From: Tubiluchus corallicola | Lineage: Eukaryota > Animalia > Priapulida | Reading direction: 5' to 3' | Assembly (NCBI GenBank): GCA_030141605.1 | Contig: JAQGDQ010000648.1 | Span: forward strand, 55,469-119,468 | DNA length: 64,000 bases | Part shown: piece by piece, positions 656 through 44,960 of the stretch | How positions within the stretch are numbered: the first letter of the stretch is position 1 | Layout: each line of letters starts with the position of its first letter | Made by a program: the position numbers and the translations under genes | The notes under the pieces: generated by a model | Told to the model about the DNA's origin: nothing | Seen by the model: only the letters and a program-made list of their open reading frames with translations | Databases searched by the model: none

Positions 656-2097
656 ACACAGCAGAGGTTTTGTAAAATGGACTAGATGAAGTAACATACT
701 TGCAATAACATTTATTGTTATTTACATTTAAATCTCTAGTTTTAATCACTTGGCAAAGCATTGTAAATATTGTATATATAATAATAATGAATAATAATAA
801 GTATAATAACATAAACACCCTGGGAGACAAACATCTGCCAGGGCAAAGTTTGCTTTCTTACAGGTAGCATAAAAATACTAACATATAATTAGGTAGGCCA
901 ATTATGTTAGTATTTGTTGTTTTGTTTCATGTGCGCCTTGTAGTCTAAATTGTTCATGGGTTCTATCTATTCTATAAATAATGACAGTTTACGTGACACG
1001 ATAAATGAATAATGAAATAACCTAACTTTGACACCCATGTAGACCCTGTGACAAAGAGAAAGGTCTACAAAGAGCCCTGTACCTGCTCAATTTTTCCTTC
1101 AGTTGAAATTACTGGACCACTCATCCTACCAGCTAAGATACTATTGTCATCTCTCTGCAAACATAAAGTTAGATGGGGTGCAAAACTATGTAATTATGAC
1201 TTAGATACATGGAATGATGCTGTAACTTTGTTGCTGCTACACAACAGATAACTACTATTCCTAGGTGCATAGCAATCGCTAAGCCAGTATATACTCTCGT
1301 ATACTACTCAGATGCATCACAAAAAGCATACTGTTGTGGTTTGACGTTACTGAAAGTGATATCACTTAAGGCCTGTTCAAGCTCAACTAGGTTATTCACT
1401 TTCTTTTTTTCGCCCATCACCTCTAAACATGAAACTAGCTTGGCTGGAAATTTCAAACTAATTTGGCTGGACATTTATTTTAATCCTTAAAAAAGTAATT
1501 TCTTTTTCGTTAATTAAATAACAATTTTGATGTTCTTCGTTAAAAATAATTATTAATTGCTCGCTTATATGTTCATTTCTCGTCTTATTTAAATATAATT
1601 TTGTTAGCCCTTATGATTTGTTTAGATGGTTTTGTTCATTGATTCATAATTAGTTATTTGGTTGTTTATTAAGGTACTAATTAATCATTTTTCGTAATTG
1701 TTATATAGTTTCCTAGTTAGTAGTCGCTTAGTTGATTAGCTATTCACTTAGTATATCGTTTAGTTACTTTTTACGTTTGAGAGAATAACTCGCACTCAGT
1801 TTTGAGCTTTGTATGCGTATTATCCTTCCGCTATGAATTCTCACTTCTATTTGCGCTAGCCTTGTGCTTTTTGCCAGGTGATTTGTTGAACATCCCCGTA
1901 CATTTCGCGATTCTATATAAACGCAACTACATTTCAGAGTCAAAGTTAAGAAAAGTTGGCACCACAAGTTGTGTATAATGTTTTTCATAATGCTTTCTGA
2001 CATATTTGGAAAAAAACATACTTCAAATAATGTTTGTGATCTTTGCGCTTTGCAGAAATTGCATCAATTTACTAAATGTCGCACTTAATCAAAAAGG

Positions 2098-3063
2098 ATG
2101 AACTGCAGTCAAGCCAAATTCTGCTTTATTTTAAGTTTTATTTACATTATTGCCAACTTAGGCTTAATATTTTTTTTGAAGCAAGTGACGTTATTTAACG
2201 GTTTCTCCAAAACTGATTCCAAAGTGTGTCACTTTTGTGATGATATTGTCAGTTCAAGTGATTTATTAAAAATTCAGTATGGAAAATTGGCTGCTGATGA
2301 TAAGCAGTTGTTGGAACACATTGGAAATCGGTGGATTGTAGGGCCATCTGAGCATCCTGTAACTGGACCTGTCACTGATAATTCACAAATACATCAGTCA
2401 AGCGTCGTAGACAAATTACTCAATCAAAGACAGCATGGATTTTATGTAGAATGTGGCGCAGCAGATGGACATCTCTCCAATTCAATATTTTTTGAAAGAA
2501 ACCGTGGATGGAATGGGCTATTAATAGAACCTAATCCGTTATTGTTTAAGAGGTTATTGCGGAGGAAACGCAATGCATATCACATAAACGCTTGTCTAAG
2601 TACAAATAATACTGCTCAGAGATTAAAGTTTGCTATGGCTGGCTTGCTAGGTGGTCTGACTGAGACAATGGACTCGGATCGTCGCAGCAGATTGAGGCTT
2701 AAGACAAATGCCAGTAAGCTTCGAGTTAAAACTGTACAATGTTTTCCACTCTATTCATTAATGCTTGCACTTGGCCAAACTCACATTGATTACCTATCTC
2801 TAGATGTTGAAGGTGCAGAACTTGACGTATTAAAAACAATACCATTTGAAAAGCTTACCATAGATACTCTGACCATTGAGTACCTCTCTACTAATGGGAC
2901 TCATGTTTGTAAAGAAAATTCTTTATCAAAGTTAAAATATATCCGTAAATTCATGGAAACAACAAAGCTTTATCGGGAAGTTTCCTTACTACCGCCTCGA
3001 AAGGATGAACTTAGTCAAGATATCGTGTTCATGCGCCATGATACAAAGGCTTCACAGAATTAG
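2098..3063 (+). CDS. Protein Star-like FkbM-family (Methyltransf_21) SAM-dependent methyltransferase, predicted type II membrane protein, single coding exon
   Basis: Intact 321-aa ORF with an N-terminal hydrophobic anchor (FCFILSFIYIIANLGLIFFL). Motifs GFYVECGAADG, GWNGLLIEPNP and VQCFPLYSLMLALG..HIDYLSLDVEGAELDVLKTIPF are typical of Star/FkbM proteins. A likely splice acceptor ctttgcgctttgcag ends at 2055, just upstream of the ATG. Confidence 0.92.
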   Translation: MNCSQAKFCFILSFIYIIANLGLIFFLKQVTLFNGFSKTDSKVCHFCDDIVSSSDLLKIQYGKLAADDKQLLEHIGNRWIVGPSEHPVTGPVTDNSQIHQSSVVDKLLNQRQHGFYVECGAADGHLSNSIFFERNRGWNGLLIEPNPLLFKRLLRRKRNAYHINACLSTNNTAQRLKFAMAGLLGGLTETMDSDRRSRLRLKTNASKLRVKTVQCFPLYSLMLALGQTHIDYLSLDVEGAELDVLKTIPFEKLTIDTLTIEYLSTNGTHVCKENSLSKLKYIRKFMETTKLYREVSLLPPRKDELSQDIVFMRHDTKASQN

Positions 3064-3689: not shown

Positions 3690-4275
3690 CAAACCTTTGC
3701 TAGCAGGACATTACTTCAAAGACAGCATTTTAATTTTGATTAAAATACATAATAATAAATCTAAGTCTGAGTCTGACCCAGGAGTAGATCAGCGCTGTAA
3801 CGACTGTGTTCCAGTTTGCTTTCTACAATTTTTTAAAATAGTGTTACAATTTTTGCCTAATTTTGTGCTATTCCCAAAATCTTTAATGTAATAATTTGTT
3901 GGGTCATTGATCGTGTAAAAATTTACTGTGTACCACTTCTGATTAACTTAGCTAACTTGTTGACTCGTAATGGACCTTTTATTGTGACATATTGTAGCTG
4001 TTGCGTTAGTTGTGATTTTGTACACTAAATGGCTGATTTACACTACCATACGCTATCCACCTAATTGAAGCATCCGCCATTAGTAAACATGCATGCTGCA
4101 CTTACATGCTGTTAATCACTGCTTTCTTGCATGCATCGCTACACTCACTACTCCAGCATGTATGCGAGTGCACCATATCTCTGCCAAGCTCTACAGAGAC
4201 CCACACATTTGGATAAAATACTTTTACCTTCTAGTGTATGTGTACTAACCAATAATGAATGTGGAGAAATAATTA
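3690..4275 (+). repeat. Modular dispersed repeat family A, internally deleted copy
   Basis: Matches pieces of 55045-55870, including ggacattacttcaaaga and ttgtagctgttgc..gattttgtacacta..atggctg..catcgctacactcac..ctccagcatgt. Confidence 0.8.
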
Positions 4276-12899: not shown

Positions 12900-14365
12900 C
12901 ACTGTAACATTGCTGTGCCATCGAACGTACTCGTCGTTGAAGTGCCACATATGCATTAGAGAATTTCCATTTCATATGAACCCATGTTTGATCATGTGAT
13001 AGAACACAATTGTGCAGTTACAATTTTGTTTTTGTTGTGCGATTTTGTACTTTATAAAATAAACTAAAATGATTTCAGGATTATACTTTATAGAATAACT
13101 TTATTCCAGGATTATCACACCATCTTGTTAATATTGGTTTTGGGCGCATCCACAGTAAGGTTTTGTTTCATATATTCTTAATTAAGTTTAACCTAGGTAT
13201 AAAGCCACACTGTACCAACTGCATGGCAGCTTGCATTGTACAATTTTTTTAACATTATGTTAACATTTTTCTCCAATTTTTGTGGTGCACAAAAGTCACT
13301 AAAGTAAAAATTTGTTGAGTCATTTTGGAGTATCCGCTATTACTAGACATGCCTGCGTTGTCAATCACTCTTACATGTGAGTTCTCATGTGTATCGTTGC
13401 TTCCATGCACGCATTGCTACACTCGCTGCTCGTATGTATGCGAGTGCACCTGGTCTCTGCCACGCTCTACACAGACCCCCATGTTTTGGTAAATTATATT
13501 CTCCATCCATGTACACTAGCCAAAAATGAATGCGGAGAAATGTCCGTTTTCATGCTAATGTTTGCTGTTTTGGTACAAAGGTATTACAGAAAACCTCAAT
13601 GATGGGAAAAAATTTTGCAAACATTTTCATAGAAACCTAAGCTGGTAGAACTTCCTTATTCTCTGCTTCCATGTTTCTATGTACTGTAAAAAAATAACAT
13701 AATAGACGAAATTGTCACAGCAGCCACCCATCCATTTAGCTGCAAGTATCTGTAGTGTATTACTTCCTCTCTTGCTACTTTTCAAGTAAACCTCTCAGCT
13801 TTTCCATTATTGTCAATTAGCGACAGAAGATCAAAAGCAGTTTCGTTTGAGAGCTGGACTCTTTGTTATCAAAGCGCAGGTGTGTTCTACTATTTTTGTT
13901 GGAAGTTTATTCTTGTCGTAATAGAACACCCTGGGAAACATGTTTTGCTAAAATTGAAAGGAATGTGTTTTTAGATTTAAAAGCTTTTCAAACTGTTTGT
14001 ATAGCAAATATTGGGCTAAGAGCTTTTCTCGCGATAATAAAGGGTGAGACGGCTTAATAATAATTGCTGTTTGGATAAGATGGAGAAACTTTTAAGTGCT
14101 CAGCCACCTGAACAAAAGGCTCTTTACATGTGGAATTCTAAGATTCGAGTTCTGTTGTCGATTTTGAGCTGGAATAATTGCTGAGAGTGGTTCTGAAGCA
14201 AAGAAAAATATTTTCCCACATTTTAACATCTTGTGTAAATTAACCACACCCGAACACCTGGGAATGATGCCAGGGAAAGAGTTAAGTAAGGAATATTGAA
14301 TAAACCGAACGCCCTATAACTGAGAAAGATTTTGGGACATTTTCGATTTTTAGTGAAAAATTAAA
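12900..14365 (+). repeat. Family A, multiply deleted derivative of ~53860-57950
   Basis: 12900-12957 matches 53862-53918 and then jumps to 54808 (ttagagaatt..ttcatatgaacccatgtttg). It continues collinearly with 55185-55490, 55640-56040 and 57110-57950. Confidence 0.85.
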
Positions 14366-15190
14366 TTAGTGAAAGTTAGCGAAAAAGTGCTATTTCGCAG
14401 AAAATAAGTAAATAAGTGCGATTACATAAAAAATATGTTCAGTTGTGGATTAAATAAGTAATTAAGTGTGGTTGCACAGAATGTAAGTAATTAAGCACGG
14501 TAGTTGCAATAGTTAGCGAAAAAGTGTGATTTTGCAGAAAATAAGTAATTAAGTGCGGTTGCATAAAAAATATGTTCAGTTGTGCATAAAATAAGTAATT
14601 AAGTGTGGTTGTGCAGAAAATATGTAATTAAGTGCGGTTGCACAGAAAGTAAGTAATTAAGCACAGTAGTTGCGATGATTAGCGAAAAAGTGTGATTTCG
14701 CAGAAAATATGTAATTAAGTGCGGTTGTGCAGAAAATAAGTAAATAAGTGAGACTGCATTAAAAATATGTGCGGTTGTGCATAAAATAAGTAATTAAGTG
14801 CGGTTGTGCAGAATGTAAGTAATTAAGTGCGGTTGTGCAAAATGTAAGTAATTAAGTGCGGTAGTGCAGAATGTAAGTAATTAAGTGCAGTTGTGCAGAA
14901 AATAAGTAATTAAGTGCAGATGCACATAAAGTAAGTAAATAAGCATGGTAATTGCAATAGTTAGCGAAAAAGTGCGATTTCGCATAAAATAAGTAATTAA
15001 GTGCGATTGCATAAAAATATGTGCAGTGGCGCATAAAATAAGTAATTAAGTGCGGTAGTTGTGATAGTTAGTGAAAAAGTGCGATTTTGCAGAAAATAAG
15101 TAAATATGTGTGATTGCATAAAAAATATGTGCAGTTGTGCAGAAAATAAGTAATTAAGCACGGTAGTTGCGATGGTTAGCGAAAAAGAAA
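14365..15190. repeat. AT-rich minisatellite, ~28-30-bp variant units (taagtaattaagtgcggttgtgcagaaaa)
   Basis: Direct tandem repetition of taagtaattaagtgc.gttg with recurring longer variants (tagttagcgaaaaagtg). Confidence 0.95.
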
Positions 15191-22949: not shown

Positions 22950-23842
22950 TAGAAAGGTGGGAGAGCTCTTAGGAAAGATTGAAGATGGGAGAGCTATTAG
23001 AAAGAACTGAAGATGGGAGACCTATTAGGAAGGACTGAACGTGAGAGAGCTATTAGGAACGACTGAAGGTGGGAGAGCAATTAGGAAGGACTGAAGATGG
23101 GAGAGCTATTAGGAAGGACTGAAGGTGGGAGAGCAATTAGGAACGACTGAAGGTGAGAGAGCTATTAGGAAGGACTGAAGATGGGAGAGCTATTAGGAAG
23201 GACTGAAGGTGGGAGAGCAATTAGGAAGGACTGAAGGTGGGAGAGCTATTAAGGAGGACTGAAGATGGGAGAGCTATAAGGAAGGACTGAAGATGGGAGA
23301 GCTATTAGGAAGGACTGAAGGTGGGAGAGCTATTAGAAAGGACTGAAGGTGGGAGAGCTATTAGGAAGGACTGAAGGTGGGAGAGCTATTAGGAAGGACT
23401 GAAGGTGAGAGAGCTATTAGGAAAGATTGAAGATGGGAGAGCTATTAGAAAGGACTGAAGATGGGAGACCTATTAGGAAGGACTGAAGGTGAGAGAGCTA
23501 TTAGGAGCGACTGAAGGTGGGAGAGCAATTAGGAAGGACTGAAGATGGGAGAGCTATTAGGAAGGACTGAAGGTGAGAGAGCTTTTAGGAACGACTGAAG
23601 GTGGGAGAGCTATTAGGAAGGACTGAAGATGGGAGACCTATTAGGAAGGACTGAAGGTGAGAGAGCTATTAGGAACGACTGAAGGTGGGAGAGCAATTAG
23701 GAAGGACTGAAGATGGGAGAGCTATTAGGAAGGACTGAAGGTGAGAGAGCTTTTAGGAACGACTGAAGGTGGGAGAGCTATTAGGAAGGACTGAAGATGG
23801 GAGAGCTATTATGAAGGACTGAAGATGGGAAAGCTATTAGAA
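22950..23842. repeat. 28-bp minisatellite (GAAGGACTGAAGRTGGGAGAGCTATTAG), ~31-32 copies
   Basis: Direct, highly homogeneous tandem units with strong purine bias on the + strand. Confidence 0.98.
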
Positions 23843-24669
23843 ATTCAGGTCAAGTGATCAAGCCAGAAAAATTATATGTAAGAAAACCACGTAGGTAACC
23901 TACAGATCAACATGAAAATATTAAGCAAACTAAATGTATTTCAAGTAAAAGAAAAGATTTTGAAGGAACAAATTTGCAATGTTAATCAAAATATAAAATG
24001 AAAAATAAACACAAAAGCTAGAATTGAACTCACGACCTATGCATCACGACAACTTAATCTGATGAACTAAACGCACATTTAATTATTATTAGTTATATTG
24101 TTAGAACAAACTATTTTGCTTATTTAATAAACAAAAATCCTCAACACCTGTCACACAGATAATTCAGCTGTCGTCTTCCACCTAGCGTGGGCTGCATACA
24201 GTAAGCCGCGTCACCTATAATCAGCGTTGCTTCTCACAAGCCGTCTTGAGCACTTTATAGTGAGTCTTGTTGTGAAATGAGTTTGAGCATTAATTTCGTT
24301 TACCTTGAGGCTTCTAACATGTTTCTGGTTTTTACATTACAAAATTCAATTACTCTGTAAGAATTCATAACAGATTCGTGGTTTAAGTTTGTTTCTCAGA
24401 AAACAGTCTCCCAGTATCCCAGGCTCTCTCAATACTCTCCCAGAGAAAAACCCCTTAACAGAAAAAACAACTTCCCTGAATAATATCTTCTTGGGAATCT
24501 CTTCACAGAAAAAGCACTTCCTAGAAAGATATTTAGCAAAAAAAATTTACGTTCTCAACTTTTACATCTTTATTATAGTTAGACAAAGCCTTCGGTTTCT
24601 CTTTCTGTGTTTACTTTTCTCTTATTTCCTACTTCCTGCCACTTCAACTCTCACTTGCTCTCCCTCCTT

Positions 24670-25085
<416 letters not shown>

Positions 25086-26568
25086 GTTAGTTATCAGTGC
25101 TTTGATTAATGGCTAATAGAAATCAGTGTCATTAAAAAAATGATCCATTGTTTAAGGGGTCAACATTGTTCTTCTAAAGTTTAAAGCTGTTTTGGAAAAT
25201 TTTGAAACTTCCTTGGTACAATTTCAAGTTGTTAATTGGCTAAAATTGCTTTCTCAAATTAATTTGCATGGCATCATCTGACTTACATAATCTCTTCAAT
25301 TTCGATTGATATTCACATAATTTGAAATAAAGTTTAATAGATAATAATTATAAAAAATGAATGCTATGCGAACTATAGTATACAGATTTGTGAATATCTT
25401 GGGACGTCTTTGGGATATGAAGCACTACCATGAGAGGCCATTTTTGTACCAAATTTTAGTTTCCAGTTTATTTTTGCGCAATGATTGTTCACACATCCGT
25501 TAGAATATACAATAATGGACCTATAGCTTTCGACGGTAGTAAAATATACCCGCTTTTGCAGAATTTGATGAAAACGTGTGAACGACCTCAATGTAGTAAT
25601 AAAAGCTTTATTTTTAGCCCTGTTGTGTACGACAGAATCACCAGTACACTCTCATACGCCATCAGCAGAGCTGCACTAGTTTAATTTTTTCACGGCCTAA
25701 ATGTAGTTTTCCTCTATGGCGTTTCCGCGAGATACAAAAAAGTTAATTACTCATTAATTAGACAACGTACTGCAAAAAATTTCGCCAAATTGTTCACGAG
25801 GAAGGCAACTATACAATAAGTGGAACTTGTTTTCCTAGTATTCCGCTTTTAAAGCACAAGAAAACCCTCCACTTTCACACAGCTTAAAAATCCTTTCAAA
25901 ACAAACGAAACATCCTTAGAAGACAAACGAAAAATCCTTTCAGTACGATATCTGCACAAAATTGCTGTAAACCAGTATAATTTTTTAAGACGATTTTTCT
26001 GAAACCTACTTCAGGTACCCCCTTTCTTGTCCTTTAAGCAAAGTCAAAACTTTGTGTTGCTAAGGGGGCAAAATAACTTCTGCTCTCTTTGCAGGGCGAC
26101 ATTAAGCACGAAAAGTGGTACTGATTCACGCTCCTTTGTACAAAATTAGACTATTTTTAACTCCTGTCTCTATTTGCTCTACTTTATTTTCCCGACTCTT
26201 TCCCAGGTGTGGAGTGTAGGCTTTGAATTCATGTGTGTAGTCACAGGGCTTTACTTTCTTAATGCTTTCCCGCTTTTTTAAGCTCCCAGGCTAATTTATT
26301 TACACAACACTTTAGAGTAAAATTCTGAAATCTTTTTCATCTGCAACACAAACAAACTTGTTGTTGCGGCATCTTGGCTCTGAAAGCTCTTTGTGTTGAC
26401 CGGTTTTGTAGGAATGTTAAATCTTTGTGAAATCTCTCAAGTTGTTCAAAATGCCCTGGGATGCTGAATCTATGTTTACACAGTCAGGTATTTCTTCTTT
26501 CACGAAATCTGCAATGTAAACTTTATTATAATCTTATTTGCAATGTTTGTAAAATGGAACATAATTAT

Positions 26569-26973
26569 CTTCTTCTCAGTTTTTCCCTATGTGGGGTCGC
26601 CGTTGTGAATAAGCCTTCTCCATGCATTCCTGTTGTTGGGAATTTATGTTCTTCTCTCTAAGGTCTACATTAAGGGTTCCAATCTTTGAACTCAAAATCC
26701 AGTTTTTGCACTAACTTCTTTGGCCGCATCCGTTCTTGATACGGTAGCCCTTGCTTGTCCACAGATTTAGGGCGATGTATCTGTGGGCCACATACAGGTG
26801 GCGTCCTAGCATTAGATTCACTTCTCTGATTTTGACTCATTCATAAAAAGGTTTTGGCTCAGTTTTTACAGGCGGATGCCCTTCCTGACCCTAACCCTCC
26901 CTATTTATCCGGGCTTGGGACCGGCACTGAGTTGGGCTAGCTTGCCCCCCCCCCCAGTGGCTAGGTTAAAAGG
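26569..26973 (-). mobile_element. Short internally deleted RTE-clade non-LTR retrotransposon with 16-bp target-site duplication
   Basis: TSD aatggaacataattat at 26553-26568 and 26974-26989. The minus strand carries an RTE-type 5' UTR (..caggaagggcatccgcctgtaaaa) and ORF start QGLPYQERMRPKKLV..(frameshift)KIGTLNV. This is fused at ~26665 to the ORF end DLREKN..RNAWRRLIHNGDPT*, followed by a GAAGAAG tail. Confidence 0.9.
26889..26973 (-). ncRNA. Twister self-cleaving ribozyme (P1 type, with a P3 stem)
   Basis: Minus strand reads U^AA CCUA GCC ACUGGG..CUCAGU GCCGGUCCCAAGCCCGG AUAAA UAGG GAGGG UUAGG. It has the conserved twister core, P2 CCUA/UAGG, P3 ACUG/CAGU, P4 CCGG/CCGG and the CCC/GGG pseudoknot partners. 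P1 is imperfect. Confidence 0.88.
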
Positions 26974-28624
26974 AATGGAACATAATTATATGATGTTAAA
27001 ATAAAGGCGTCAAAAGCTGAAATTGCTGTGTGATAGGATTCTGGCTCATTATCAACGGCAACCCTCTAAGATGAGCTACTGAACTGTCAGAGGTGACTGA
27101 GCTACACTATGACAACTAATAAACGGTGAGGTGAGAAAAATCCTCTCTTTACGAGGTAAACAGTCAGGATCAGCATGGCAAACGGAACCGCCCAAATGAG
27201 CATCGAACCCACGTCTCATGAATGGCACATGTAAGGCATGCACTTTTTCCATTCGGCATAATCCCGTATGTGATTTAAATAAAGTCCCATAAAAATATTT
27301 TAATAGAATTATGGCTGTGCAGACTTCTATAGTCTATATGCAGACTTAAGTTTTGTATGTTATCATGAGATCTATAAAAGCAGTAATTAGTAATTAGGTA
27401 ACAGCTGTGCCAAAACGTTTCCTGAAATATCAAACATTTGTAAGAAAATAGCTCGTACGTCTAATGTTTGTATAAACGATTTATCATAGGAGTTTCAAGG
27501 ATAGTCATTTACACACTGACACACTGTCAAGAGTAAATTTCTCACACTGACAAGAGTAAATTTTATAAAAGAGAGCTGTTGTTTGATCGCAGACATGTTT
27601 GTATTACGGATGAAAATCTTCCTCTGCGTCTAGAACATGACGGTCTGAGCTCAGCTCTTCACATGATTCCAAATTTTATTAAATTCCAGACAGGACAGTT
27701 GAAGATTAAATCTTTGTTTGCTTTGCGTGACTCGCTTCTCAGGTAAATACTTCTCGAGATTTCACTTATTAAATTCCTTGCCCGGTTACTGGTGATAAAA
27801 ATCTTAATTTGGGTGCTCGATGTTTACAGATGAAATAATCTGTTTACACAGCGCATTTGTTCAAATTCAGATGAGACTCTGTTTGAGCTTTACGGAGACA
27901 AACAAACAAAGTCATCATTTGCTCAGTATAACTGTTTATTGTTTGTACCATTTTCATGGCACATGCCCCATAGCCATTTGCTTCATCCCAAAATATTACA
28001 TTTTATCTGAAATAAGATATAAATTTCTTTAATAAACTGATTCATTTCTACCAAAACATCGAATATGATTAAATTAATGAGAAGCTTACAGTAAATAAAA
28101 TAAATGACTAAATAAAATTTACGTACATCGTTGGCATTAAATCATGAGTTCACACAGACACGTCACCACATGTACACCTTGAAACCTAAATGACCGGAAA
28201 TTCTGTAGGAAGCGACTATTGAGGCCAGGTGTCGCCACTTGTAACTTATAGCTATACTAAATTTGACAAACAAAAATCCTTGACAGACTCCTAGGCAATA
28301 TTTACTTTATGAACAAAAACCGATTGCTCAACATGGGAAAGAGTTAGCTGTTCTATGGTCTTCTCTAGCTACCACTAGCTTGCTTCTAGAGAATATTTTC
28401 CTTGCAGAATTATTAGTATAAAAGCACAAAGCTTTCATAAAGCATTTATAAACGAAAAGAACAGCTAGTGTGACATCATCATAATTATCATCATCATCAC
28501 CGTGTTTATTTCGGTGAGCATTTCAAGGTTGGTCATCACCCAGTAGTTCTCTGCTAAGCTTCTTGTGAGATTTGCTGAACCATTTCAAAAAAACGACACT
28601 ATCATTGTCAGTCATTTTTAAAAT

Positions 28625-30989: not shown

Positions 30990-31210
30990 GAAAATTTACT
31001 AGCTTCAACATATGGCAGTTTTCCAATGCTGCAAAATGTGGCGGAACGGCAATTCATTAAAATGTAGCAAGCAAACCAGCCATTGAAAATATCGTCCCAA
31101 TTTCTTTTCCATAGATTCAACTACATGGCCTGTATTTACAATTCTGCCACCGCAGCCAACTGCACTAAGACCGACTCTCTCTGCAGCCTTCAAATACTGT
31201 AAAATTGCTT
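30990..31210 (-). mobile_element. hAT-like DDE transposase fragment
   Basis: AVGCGGRIVNTG..MEKKLGRYFQWLVCLLHFNELPFRHIL resembles the GCDGTxxNTG..QWxxCxLHxNELPxRH signature. The catalytic D appears mutated. Confidence 0.75.
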
Positions 31211-31699
31211 CACAGACATTAAGAGCAGGCTCACAGGCAGGTGCCCATTTCCTCTCTCATTTGTTTTTTGCCGGCATTATTTCCGTTTTCAAAGCAGTCA
31301 TCCCTTCCTGAATCTCTTTTGAATTGTAGAATATTATCATGTTCAGCAGAACATTTCAAACACAGGCGGAGACACAAGGCAGTGGGAAATGTGTGATTAT
31401 AATTTTAAAGACTACGTCATGATACTCAGATTGCTGTCGGCACAAAGCTATGCTTTTTATCTAACTAACGACAGGCCAGTTGCTACCTAGCTATATAATT
31501 ACGATTTGAAGCCAAACACTAATTAATTAATCAGCTAGATATGGAACTCTCAGATGGAACTGCTTTTGATCTTCTGTCACTTATTGAGAACAACAGAAAA
31601 AGTTGAATGATTACGTGAAGAGTGCGATGAAAGTTACGCACTATATAAACTTCCAACTAAATGGATGAGTGGCTCTCTGAAAAACTCATCTGTTGTGTT

Positions 31700-32200
31700 T
31701 CCAGTTTATTTTTACGATAGATAGAAACAGAGAATATGGCTAAGGCAACTCTCCCTGTAACAGGTCCCTATGAAAAGGTCTGCAAATTTAATATTCATTA
31801 TTCTTCAAAAATTATAAAAATGTGGTAACCATATATCTGAAGCATTCGAACATTGAGGCCTGATGACAGCATTGAAAATTCTTATTGTTATCTGTGAATT
31901 AATATCATAAGAAAATAAAGTCTGATGTAATAAATTTATACATTTCATACCTGTATCATTTATGGTATTAATACTATCCCTAAAATAACCCAAATTACCG
32001 AACTCTAAAACTAAATATTTATTTTTCTTTTACTTTCAAAAGTTTCAATCCTTAAAGCAAAAATTATATTTTTTTAAATTTTTGCCTGTTTTATAAGAAA
32101 TAACTGCTTGAGTTTTATTTATATTTACAGTCGATGACCACTGATAACCATATTCAGCAAGTTATAGAATAAGCTTATTACAAGGGGGCATTTGCCATTA
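31700..32200 (-). mobile_element. Degraded non-LTR retrotransposon fragment (region downstream of the RT core)
   Basis: Minus strand KYL..GYFRDSIN..TIRIFNAVIRPQCSNASDIW resembles LINE KYLG..LFxxxVxPxLxYGSEIW. Confidence 0.55.
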
Positions 32201-32339
32201 TATTTTTTGGACAGTGCAGATAAGTGGCTGTCTGTAGAAAAATTTGAGTTTGTAGAAAAAAATTGTAAAAAAACTACAAGTGAGTTTGTAAAAGGAACCA
32301 GAAAAGGAGTCATATTAACAATAACAATAATCATTATCA

Positions 32340-32445
32340 CTAATCAACGTCGTCATCATCATCATCATCACCATTATGATCATCACCTAGATCATCATCA
32401 TGAGTATCATCAACTTCTTCGTCGCCATCATCATCATCATGATCG
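32340..32445. repeat. (CAT)n degenerate microsatellite
   Basis: Runs of catcatcat. Confidence 0.85.
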
Positions 32446-32994
32446 TTATAATAAATGTTACTAATAATGCACTATATCACTGCATAATCATCACTGCTTA
32501 TAAAATTGGGCACACTAGTTCCTATAAAGGAGATGGAAAATAATTTACTCTAGGTCAATTATTTAGTAAGTATTAACTTGTGTAGCCAAGGTATTCACTG
32601 TATTTCCAAATATCGGTCAACCATTTCATAAATTCTTGAAATTACTACTCCCCCCACTTTTTTTTAAGATTTCCACGTACAGTTTGGCCTGTCAAGCCGT
32701 GATTTTAGGCTCAAACTGTATGCATCACAATTATTCTATAATGTAATTTGCACATGTATATGCTGCATTTTGTAATTTCTCGATAACACTGCATTTATTT
32801 ATATTTATATTTACTTAAATGGATAATTATCTGTATTTTAATGATAATTGTAAGATGCAAAGTGGAAATGAATAAACTCTTGAACTGAATCTTAAATTAA
32901 CATTGCTTTCATTGATTTGAAATAGTCTTGTTGTTATCAACGGATGTTTAAAAAATCTCTTTGGCTTATTTGAGTATACGATCATTGACAGAAA

Positions 32995-35160
32995 CTGGAT
33001 CTAATTTAAATCATGGACAGAACTTTCTGTGTTGCGCACATTGTGTGCCAAAAATGAACCCAGGAATAAGAAAAAAATCGAGTTTTGACATGAGTTAAGA
33101 TTCCTATACTGTCTCGTACAGACCTAAAGCAGATACAAGACTAGTGATGCATTTTTACCACCTCCCGCACCCCCAAATATATTTATCAGCGTAACAAGAA
33201 GACACAGACTTATTTATGTACAAGGTTTTGTTTGCTCTAATCCTTGAAATTTACTAACACAGTTTTCATCATGCAGCCTTTTCTACTACTTCTCGACATT
33301 CATTATTGGATAGTGTACATTCATTAAATATTTTACCCAAGTAAGCCTGTCTATGCAGAGCATGGCAGAGACGCGTTCCCTTCGTACACATGACTTTTCA
33401 AATTATTACTTTAAAGACTTTTATTGGCTGCGCAAAATCGGGAAAAATTTAACACTATATTAAGAAAATTGTAGAATTTAACAGCTAGCACAGCATGGCT
33501 CTACCCCTGGATCAGACTGAATAAACAGTAAATGACACAAATCCTTACTGTGGACGTGCCCAAAACAATATTAGAAAAGCAGCAGAACAGCTTTCATTTG
33601 GTGCGATAAACCAGAAACAAATTTATTTTTTAAAGTAAATACTGAACAACAAGAAGAAAATATTAAGTGCAAAAATTTATCAAAAAATAATAATTAACAA
33701 CAACCAGTAGTGATTAAGAAGTACGCAAGTGAGTTGAGAAAAAACGATTGTTTTTTGATTTAGTATTATGCATTTAAAATCAAAATTGTTAAACAATGTT
33801 TGAAGTGAGATTTGTAATAATATAACCGCATGGGAAATGCCAAGTTTTATAAGACTAAAAGGATTTATAGGCACAATAACAAGACAAGTGTTCAATCACA
33901 TGACCAAACATGGCTCAATATGAAAGAGTAATTCTCTAAAGTGATTTGTTTGCTGAAGACAGAAATTGTCTCTCTAATATCAATCTCCTGGCGCCACCCC
34001 TGTTATCATTCAAATTAAAAAACTTCGGATTATTTTTGTCTGCTCTTTAGTATGAATAGTCTTACTTTTGCATTGCTTTCTTTGACTTGATATTGTCTTG
34101 TGGTTATTAATTATTGTTGTAAATAAATTGTCCCTTAGATCTAATTTAAATCATGGACAGAACTTTCTGTGTTGCGCACATACTGTCTCGTACAGACCTA
34201 AAGCAGATACAAGACTAGTTATGCATTTTTGCCACCTACCGCACACCCAAATATATTTGCCAGTGTAGCAAGAAGACACAGATTTATTTAAGTACAAGGT
34301 TTTGTTTGGTTTAATCCTTGAAATTCACTAACACAGTTTTCATTATTCAGCCTTTTCTACTACATCTCGACATTCATTATTGGATAGTGTACATTCATTA
34401 GTTGATGAAAATATTTTACCCAAGTATATGCAAGTCTATGCAGAGCATGGCAGAGATGCATTCCCTTCGTACACATGCTGGAGCACTGAGTGTAGCGTAT
34501 GCGTAAAGTGATTTGTTTGCTGAAGACAGAAATTGTCTCTCAAATATCAATCACCTGGCATCAACCCTGTTATCATTCAAATTCAAAAACTTCGGATTAT
34601 TTTTATCTGCTCTTTAGTATGAATAATCTTACTCTTGCATTGCTTTCTTTGACTTGATATTGTCTTGTGGTTATTAATTATTGATGTGAATAAATTGTCC
34701 TTAGATCTAATTTAAATCATGGACAGAACTTTCTGTGTTGCGCACATTGTGTGCCAAAAATGAGCCCAGGAATAAGAAAAAAATCTAGTTTTGACATGAG
34801 TTAAGATTCCTATACTGTCTCGTACAGACCTAAAGCAGATACAAGACTAGTGATGCATTTTTGCCGCCTACAGCCCTCCCACAAAATATTTGCCAGTGTA
34901 ACAAGAAGACACAGATTTATTTAAGTACAAGGTTTTGTTTGGTTTAATCCTTGAAATTTACTAACACAGTTTTCATTATTCAGCCTTTTCTACTACTTCT
35001 CGACATTCATTATTGGATAGTGTACATTCATTAGATGACGAAAATATTTTACCCAAGTATGCCTGCCTGTGTAGAGCACGACAGAGACGTGTTGCATTCG
35101 CACACATGCTGGAGCACTGAGTGTAGCGATGCGTATGGAAGAAATGATGCACATGAGAGC
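32995..35160 (-). repeat. Local tandem triplication containing inverted family A module a
   Basis: gatctaatttaaatcatggacagaactttctgtgttgcgcaca occurs at ~32998, ~34138 and ~34704. 33940-34505 and 34506-35100 are adjacent duplicates. Confidence 0.92.
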
Positions 35161-43390: not shown

Positions 43391-43865
43391 ACGAATTACT
43401 ATGAAGAAAGTGCTTCACTTACTTCCGATGGTATCTTTTCCCTTTGCTTCTATTGTTTCTATTGAAATCGAAGATGCGCCCTAATCAAATCTTCCTGTAA
43501 AATCAGACACATCTAAGCGCCCAAAAAGAAAGGCTGTATATTTTCTCCTTCCTCTTTCCTTATTAAGATGCTAAATTGTTACTTTCCTTATACTTACTTT
43601 GTATACAAAGTGTGCGCCTGCTTATAAACCTGGAAAACCTATAGAAATGTTAGTTAAGTTATTGTTTGACAGAACCTGTATAGCAGACGAAGTAGCTGAC
43701 AAATCGCAAAAATGCTGTACAAACTTTATCCTAAACACAAAGTGTTAGACTAGTAGCCATTGTTGTATGTCATTGATGAAAATACTTACTTACACTTGGA
43801 CATGCAGTTAGAACTGTACTACAATTACTGCGACTAGTAATTTTAAATCAAACATTTTATAAAGA

Positions 43866-44960
43866 TTGACATGCTTAATTCATGGCGTTAGTGGCAAATT
43901 TTTGACTATACTTAGAAATATGTTTTCTAAGTGTAATCATGCAGTCAAGCTGCCTGAAGGAATTAAAGAAGGTTTCTCATCTAACTTTGGTTTAAAACAA
44001 GGTTGGGTACTTCGTCCAGTTTTATTTTCCAGTTTTGTTAACGATCTACCAAGTGCCTATACGTTAGATTACGACCCTGTTAAATTAGCTAATGAGAAAT
44101 TTAAATGTTTATTATATGCAAATAATATTTTACTCGTCTCTAATAGTGAAACCGGTTTACGTATGTGTTTAGACAAACTCGCTTCTTATAAATGGGCTCT
44201 AAGTGTTAACTTAACCAAAACTAAATTAATTATCTTTAATAAATCAAGCAAAATCTTAAAGGACGAACTCATTTATTTTAACGCCAAATTAATCGAAAAA
44301 AGTCAAAAATATAAATGTATAAATACATTAGCATTGATTTCCGAGCATCATCAGAACAGTATACTCATGCTGAACAATAGGGAAACTCTTACAATATGAA
44401 TGTGCCGATTGATTGATCTCCCTTGTTGAGTCCATTATCACACATGGAGCCCCACTGCCTTTAATACTGAAAATTCATTTTTTCGTGACACTCTCGGAGC
44501 AGATTTTGACAGATTAAAAAGTGAATTTGTTCAGTTAAAATTTTGTAAACAGATATTACGAGCAGAAATGGGTATATACCCAACTAGATTTACCCAATTT
44601 AGATGGCTACATATACTGGAAAGACCCTGCAGTAGTCTAATTTACAATGCATATATAAACGGTAAACAAAAAGATTACGAAAACGTGTATAACTGGGTCT
44701 CGTTCATTAGGAATATTTTGTACAAACTTGGGTTTGAGCAAACTTGGATTAATGAAGGTACATTAAGTGCTCGCAGATTGTTTTATTGCATTAATAAGAA
44801 GGATTTATAGAGACAACCATGATGACAGGGTAACAAACTTCGAACTTATAGGCTCTTCAAAGAAGGGAAACGTTGTTTATGAAAATATTTTAAAAATATT
44901 GCCTCTTTTTGCAGTTATGCCTGTAAGTGAACAGTTAATTTGTATTAATGGCCTAAGAGA
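43866..44960 (+). mobile_element. Non-LTR retrotransposon reverse transcriptase relic (C-terminal RT and downstream region)
   Basis: GLKQGWVLRPVLFSSFVNDL, CLLYANNILL (decayed YADD), WALSVNLTKTK, RAEMGIYP, NWVSFIRNIL and KLRTYRLFK, broken by frameshifts. Confidence 0.9.

Follow-up and report, generated by a model that had tools for sequence, protein, structure and literature searches.

An insertion in Tubiluchus corallicola very probably formed from the two ends of an RTE-like LINE behind a predicted twister ribozyme, with sister copies that start at the predicted cleavage site

The minus strand of a 64,000-nt stretch of Tubiluchus corallicola DNA (hereafter, the window) carries a 405-nt insertion at 26973-26569, which very probably unites both ends of an RTE-like LINE behind a twister ribozyme, a ribozyme that is likely to have freed the donor RNA from a longer host transcript. 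Copies of the element begin at the AA that follows the predicted cut. As sister copies elsewhere in the genome start exactly at the predicted cleavage site, the twister is likely to have cut the element RNA free.

The insertion is enclosed by an exact direct repeat of 16 nt, for which the chance over 900 registers was roughly estimated at 2e-6 (Table 1). An earlier note on this DNA, made from the letters alone, had read the minus strand correctly from 26973 to 26889; the element boundary that it had drawn from a target-site duplication also stood, with the predicted cut (26968/26967) lying 6 nt inside it. Empty-site contigs, in which 26556 was joined to 26978 and 421 nt were skipped, were found in three of the four DNA runs (X1, X2, and X3) and in both samples, X1, X2, and X4 being DNA runs of one sample and X3 coming from another. 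One of these contigs differed in 11 of 108 letters on one side, and the empty sites may therefore be paralogues of a repeated host sequence and not an allele; in either case, the 421 nt are an insertion. Sister contigs from the four public DNA runs were placed on the window at 80% likeness, which gave 426 loose-end rows, 24 of them listed. At the 3' boundary, loose ends were observed at 26568 in all four DNA runs (13, 20, 16, and 8 contigs); the sequence beyond them was mixed and included additional GAA units.

Table 1. Parts of the insertion and its target-site duplication, in window positions.
Feature	Positions	Strand	Evidence
Target-site duplication, 5' copy	26974..26989	-	Exact direct repeat with 26553-26568
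Six extra junction bases	26968..26973	-	Comparison of both junctions; junction contigs
Predicted twister type-P1 ribozyme, 3' product part	26890..26967	-	RF03160 match, pair lists, sister ends at 26967
Rest of the 5' untranslated region	26841..26889	-	Depth and homogeneous loose ends at 26848
Putative N-terminal piece of the RTE-like ORF, ending at the first endonuclease motif	26666..26840	-	56-residue frame; profile positions 4-54 of 985
Putative last ~25 codons of the RTE-like ORF	26587..26665	-	Profile positions 970-985 of 985; P0057 C-terminus
Short 3' untranslated region and GAA-repeat tail	26569..26586	-	Sequence; 3' loose ends at 26568
Target-site duplication, 3' copy	26553..26568	-	Exact direct repeat with 26974-26989

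The earlier note had placed a twister core at the 5' end of the element and had proposed a covariance-model search. In such a search of 26400-27200 (801 bases, E up to 10), the Rfam twister-P1 model RF03160 matched 26972-26891 of the minus strand over its full length (model positions 1-68 of 68) with 61.7 bits and an E-value of 2.1e-13, which supports the core although the score is 5.5 bits lower than the gathering cut-off of 67.2 bits. The other five of the six matches had E-values of 1.1-8.4. A scan of the whole window with Rfam at gathering level returned nothing, the score of the twister being too low to be reported at that level.

The stems P2 and P4, the two pseudoknots, the conserved bases of L1, L2, and L4, and the U^AA at the predicted cut are all present. 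The 3' product part starts with AA and carries P2, P3 with a run of 11 G, P4, and both pseudoknots. The pairing of P2 (CCUA/UAGG) that the note had pointed out is fully Watson-Crick (4/4); P3 has six of six pairs (one G-U), P4 three of three, and the pseudoknots of 2 bp (26961-60/26914-13) and 3 bp (26919-17/26897-95) are complementary throughout (2/2 and 3/3). P1 consists of three Watson-Crick pairs and two U-U mismatches beside the predicted cut, just as the note had drawn it from the extra bases. The predicted acid, A26967, is present, and so is G26899, which we take, by the twister consensus, to be the general base of loop 1. The sequences of L1 and L4 are identical to the Rfam consensus, and that of L2 to the Schistosoma twister Sma-1-73 (Table 1 of PMC8501958). 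According to the available text of PMC8501958, the cut leaves a product starting with AA, whose terminal A acts as the acid, and the loop-1 G acts as the base. The note had called P3 an extra stem, a description that has to be dropped: P3 belongs to the Rfam model and is found in all seven Schistosoma twisters of Table 1 in PMC8501958. The length of the G run in P3 (26955-26945) varies among sister copies, with indels at 26944-26945, and the present copy differs from nearly all of its sisters at 26939, 26859, 26614, and 26611.

A pattern scan of metagenome contigs yielded four loci with related heads (L001-L004), while two pattern scans of viral contigs gave no match. The four loci agree in the core and in the downstream motif because the search pattern required it, so that this agreement does not speak for conservation, and the five-row alignment is too small and too poorly aligned in P1-P3 for covariation. 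In L003, the same head precedes an ORF of 998 aa with an endonuclease domain (PF03372, residues 45-263) and a reverse transcriptase (RT) domain (PF00078, residues 568-808). L002 is an independent twister-headed element of 284 nt, in which a 13-nt duplication adjoins the AA directly; its body matched neither L003 nor the window element. The L002 element lies at 3991-4274 of its contig and ends in a (GT)n tail; its short twister-headed family is also represented in L001 (about 1720-1970), the alignment of the two being about 250 nt long. In L004, a twister head and the distal RT region are joined within some 130 nt. No convincing target duplication was found at L001, L003, or L004, whose heads scored 34.9-41.3 bits. 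In addition, two of the 120 RTE-like proteins listed as homologues of the L003 ORF (P0048 and P0053) start with residues read through from the twister core, which indicates that their genes carry a twister head.

The 5' ends of the sister copies bear directly on cleavage. Among the 24 of 426 loose-end rows listed, the only 5'-side ends were at 26967, the first base after the predicted cut (17 contigs in X1 and 28 in X2), and at 26968 (11 contigs, X2 only), and no row for 26967 came from X3 or X4. The sequences beyond these ends were heterogeneous (agreement 0.43-0.53), and the one additional base in 11 of the 39 X2 contigs is consistent with a T present by chance (expected 0.32, p = 0.73). Starting at AA with variable flanks, the sister copies have the arrangement of Perere-3-type T-variants. 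The earlier note had proposed that self-cleavage defined the 5' end of the retrotransposed RNA and had suggested examining where sibling copies begin; their clustering at the predicted cut, with mixed flanks, argues for this proposal, in which cleavage is deduced from the position of the ends. The bin 26959-26987 was shallow in X1 (depth 342 vs. 31,065 in the core), and many copies may thus end earlier, for example in the G run.

Ends at 26967 could also be produced by an internal promoter start or by a stop of the reverse transcriptase, the twister fold then being a relic unable to cut. The Rfam score below the cut-off, the rival folds predicted for this copy, and the broken heads of some relatives (L001, L003, and L004) would fit a relic. 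However, the ends fall on the exact base predicted by ribozyme chemistry both here and in L002, the core and pseudoknot pairs are intact, and about 94% of the natural twisters tested in one survey cleaved in vitro, as stated in its available text (PMC11662667). We therefore consider a relic highly improbable and retain the twister as the likely origin of these ends.

Between the duplication and the predicted cut, this copy has six bases that supply the 5' strand of P1 and the U preceding the cut. The target runs on with TTTTA past its duplicated part, and the 5' junction can be described as an 18-nt duplication followed by four inserted bases that repeat adjacent target letters, after which the element starts exactly at 26967. 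Junction contigs from X1, X2, and X3, thus from both samples, contained no other letters. The six bases were likely re-copied from the adjacent target, as judged from these letters, and slippage during the joining of the 5' end may have generated them. Alternatively, they could be the donor's own upstream sequence, carried on an RNA that had escaped cleavage; they do not continue the target exactly, and three of the six pair in P1. Yet the next four T's of the target, together with a repeat of four adjacent target letters, can account for them, and the sisters lack them, with mixed flanks beyond 26967 and an extension to 26968 at chance level, so that an origin in the donor has only a small chance of being correct.

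Elements of the RTE clade have an ORF of about 1000 aa and a tail of short repeats. Downstream of the twister, the window copy has no intact ORF for an apurinic endonuclease (APE) and RT protein, and only stubs of it were found. A profile was made from 67 of the 120 listed APE-RT homologues of the L003 ORF (900-1060 aa) and searched against 68 pieces from the six reading frames of 26300-27250. An N-terminal and a C-terminal piece gave the two best matches, in this order and on the same strand. The first starts at an ATG at 26840, 85 nt from the twister core (84 nt in L003), and forms a frame of 56 codons that is broken near 26687; it matched the profile with an E-value of 5.3e-5, and its score against the L003 ORF was reached by none of 1000 shuffles. 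The second piece is joined directly to it near 26666 and ends with a stop at 26589-26587. Its profile match (E-value 0.011) is weak when taken alone, 262 of 1000 shuffles reaching its score against L003, and 13 of its last 15 residues are shared with the C-terminal end of P0057. When the N-terminal stub of 51 residues was used to search for homologues, none of four candidates was scored, and a Pfam search of the 56-residue frame gave no match.

As the two stubs match the two ends of the profile, about 900 codons are missing at the junction near 26666; by homology, the absent coding middle amounts to about 2.7 kb. On these alignments, the body of the insertion is read as some 55 codons from the start and some 25 from the end of a single-ORF endonuclease/RT protein of RTE-like type, followed by the GAA tail. 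A single ORF is the arrangement given for the RTE clade in the available text of PMC8501958, and a single ORF with APE and RT is present in L003, whose homologues match both window stubs. The layout corresponds to that of RTE elements, and we call the element RTE-like by layout and homology, given that no protein among the 120 listed homologues is labelled as an RTE reference and that the window copy has no RT domain.

The sister copies are abundant. In X1, the summed contig depth was about 31,000-33,000 over the twister and 29,000 at the 3' end, compared to 7-10 for contigs unique to the insertion, and in X2 it reached 6-9 x 10^5 compared to 72. We rejected a reading of these sums as copy numbers; as an order of magnitude, they suggest sister copies in the thousands. 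The sisters resemble this copy mainly at their two ends: deep cover stops near 26848, where homogeneous loose ends were observed (agreement 0.81-0.98 in X1, X2, and X4), and together with homogeneous loose ends at 26638 this indicates that most sisters share only the first ~120 and the last ~70 nt with it. In X1, X2, and X4, the two ends were covered to a similar depth, which suggests that the elements are short and mostly complete; in X3, the 3' end was tenfold in excess.

The insertion, in which a target duplication encloses nothing but the joined 5' and 3' ends of a LINE, has the composition of SIDEs (short internally deleted elements) and of bipartite non-autonomous LINEs. The exact 405-nt form could represent an amplifying non-autonomous family, a SIDE master lineage, instead of a one-off deletion. 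The insertion is complete with a clean duplication, and the depth of its middle (26698-26842) in X1, 42-233, is several times that of a single copy. Nevertheless, the contig that spans the 26666 junction without any difference had a depth of 10 compared to 7.3 at the unique 5' junction (X1), and relatives differ at the junction, one lacking 13 nt at 26685-26699 and another having 8 more nt at 26640-26641. An amplifying family of exactly this form is therefore unlikely. The 26666 junction is real but single- or low-copy, both ends of the element being roughly a thousandfold deeper, and its depth makes this copy a likely one-off or a rare form. In X3, a contig with a depth of 649 (vs. 8.8) joined 26748 to a sequence that matched the 3' end of the window element in 26 of 30 letters by eye; read from these letters, this joint is a second deletion form. 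Taken with the join in L004 and the short elements of L001 and L002, the window junctions indicate that deletion behind the twister head is recurrent.

We also examined whether this copy would be expected to cut, a possibility that the note had raised from the partly restored P1. Plain folding of the motif was uninformative for a double pseudoknot (z = 0.88, with 167 of 200 shuffles folding equally well). With nearest-neighbour folding of the cleaved-product form, the mean pair probabilities were 0.70 for P2, 0.73 for P3, and 0.83 for P4. P1 had a probability of 0.0 once the six bases, the duplication, or a 60-nt flank was added, and P2 fell from 0.70 to 0.35, 0.14, and 0.04, respectively. Rival pairings were favoured in these predictions, upstream pyrimidines competing for the G-rich 3' strand. 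As the model ignores pseudoknots and co-transcriptional folding, the loss of P1 and P2 calls for caution and is not a refutation. The G strand of the pseudoknot (26899-26893) was also predicted to pair with pyrimidines at 26853-26847 of the minus strand, possibly an anti-ribozyme helix that would form once transcription has passed; a helix of this type was not seen by eye in L002 or L003. In the available text of the survey of natural twisters cited above (PMC11662667), P1 defects had no effect on cleavage, so that the restoration of P1 would matter little, and reactivity may change with the flanking sequence. We expect, with somewhat better than even confidence, a short transcript of this copy to cut itself in vitro, and the predicted chance of cutting is lower in its genomic context. 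Since the rebuilt P1 is weak, whether this copy could cut read-through RNA would be governed by the flank.

It could further be imagined that this copy serves the host as a ribozyme in the processing of a host transcript, given its intact core and a 5' junction that occurs in two samples (X1/X2 and X3). Against this, the copy sits in repeated host sequence with empty-site forms, no open frame of at least 120 codons lies between 25117 and 42191, and no RNA cover of the element was seen in the runs X24, X19, X17, and X21. These four RNA or RNA-like runs gave 1, 24, 29, and 6 contigs, all matching only in part; most were short twister-core pieces of other families, which have no bearing on expression or on cutting in vivo. 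A function for the host is thus extremely improbable, and we return to the twister as part of a mobile element.

The insertion could have arisen as follows. By analogy with Perere-3, a donor copy would have been transcribed by read-through from a host promoter. The twister would then have cleaved at U^A to release an RNA starting with AAC, as suggested by the sequence and by the end positions of the sisters. An intact RTE protein, acting in trans, may have bound the 3' end and the GAA tail and carried out target-primed reverse transcription at a nicked site. The coding middle could have been lost already in the donor, or by a template jump during this insertion. Finally, six bases would have been added at the 5' junction, probably by re-copying of the adjacent target, and they rebuild a weak P1.

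Several known systems share parts of this arrangement. In Perere-3, an RTE-clade element found in Schistosoma mansoni, T-variant twisters head the element, as described in the available text of Liu et al. 2021 (PMC8501958), where cleavage was measured in vitro and in reporters and the elements are full-length. The resemblance is close: the head of a single-ORF APE-RT element is a type-P1 twister that includes P3 and agrees in L4 and L1, AA forms the start of the copies, the insertion site provides the 5' strand of P1, and the 3' tail consists of short repeats (GAA here, GTAA in Perere-3). The distance from the cut to the ATG is 127 nt here, and that from the T-variant to the ATG about 112 or 147 nt in Perere-3. 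The window copy differs in its deleted coding middle, in the sequences of P2 and P3, in the six bases between duplication and predicted cut (in Perere-3, duplications adjoin the AA), and in occurring in another animal. Its P2 (CCUA/UAGG) departs from CUCC/GGAG of Schistosoma by three double-sided changes that keep the pairing (Table 1 of PMC8501958). A review by de la Pena (2020, PMC7761336), citing unpublished work, describes truncated but active twisters conserved at the 5' ends of RTE elements, with a likely role in processing the RNA out of upstream transcripts. These share the 5' position, whereas internally deleted derivatives, a feature of the present case, are not mentioned in the available text of that review.

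Internally deleted LINEs are known as well. SIDEs of R2 (Eickbush and Eickbush 2012, PMC3414825; also PMC6765202) likewise join a 5' ribozyme to the 3' end of a LINE and, according to the available texts, are mobilized in trans by the full-length element; the element that hosts them, R2, is site-specific in rDNA, and the ribozyme is HDV-like (PMC8501958), in contrast to the twister, the RTE-like parent, and the dispersed sites found here. Bipartite non-autonomous RTE LINEs (RTESINE1/2, WALLSI3, MAR4_MD, and Bov-A; Kojima 2018, PMC5786205) also keep only the RTE 5' and 3' ends, without a small-RNA head, and a 5' ribozyme was proposed there as the reason why they retain the true 5' end. The ribozyme literature drawn on in the available text of that paper concerns HDV-like ribozymes, with no twister named, and the window copy additionally keeps ORF stubs. 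The mechanism of twister-headed RTE elements is thus already published for Perere-3, and internally deleted LINEs are also known; no paper on twister-headed non-autonomous RTE derivatives, and no usable one on RTE 5' junctions, was found in the open-licence literature, the former search covering main texts. The T-variant lists that accompany PMC8501958 and PMC11662667 may hold twisters from related animals.

Two other classes were considered and rejected. Among the six Rfam matches in 26400-27200, there was no tRNA-, 5S-, or 7SL-derived head as in a classical SINE, the head being derived from a LINE. Retrozymes carry hammerheads in tandem or terminal repeats and yield circular RNA; the insertion has a single twister, with no hammerhead match in 26400-27200 and no second copy in the window.

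The surroundings of the insertion are animal DNA with an AT content of 64% in the window, rich in repeats, with many dispersed ones of 70-93% identity and tandem arrays at 22954-23843 (period of about 28 nt) and 14356-15187. Just upstream of the insertion, on the opposite strand, a second short repeat (27041-27103, plus strand) resembles an RTE-type 3' end; its frame ends in LIINGNPLR before a stop, and 18 of 22 letters are like the element's own 3' end. It had a depth of about 500-580 in X1 and loose ends at 27041 and 27095, and no target duplication of at least 6 nt was found. A degenerate RT fragment of another LINE lies at 43863-44810 on the plus strand (PF00078, E-value 6e-9), with a second open frame downstream. 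At 2089-3063 (plus strand), an intact frame of 324 codons contains an FkbM methyltransferase domain (PF05050, E-value 6e-15); its best named relatives are from the annelids Owenia and Paralvinella (42-43% identity), followed by a brachiopod and bivalves.

This single copy is likely a dead end, and the abundant sister family is the more interesting object. Direct mapping of the 5' ends carries the Perere-3 model beyond schistosomes to a further group of animals, and the element brings together two ideas known before, twister-headed RTE elements and non-autonomous LINEs with internal deletions. Should the abundant sisters prove short, thousands of self-cleaving motifs would be spread across the genome, where they could cut host read-through or intronic RNA and would put the control of ribozyme activity by the flanks to the test. 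With roughly even chances, the genome harbours thousands of short protein-less retroposons with a twister head in place of a tRNA promoter, born several times by internal deletion of RTE elements, as the junctions at 26666 and 26748 here and those of L002 and L004 elsewhere suggest, spreading from host read-through transcripts, and each with an activity set by the flank in which it landed. If this is true, they would amount to a SINE-like class with ribozyme heads, and animal transcripts would hold thousands of twister variants as a natural library.
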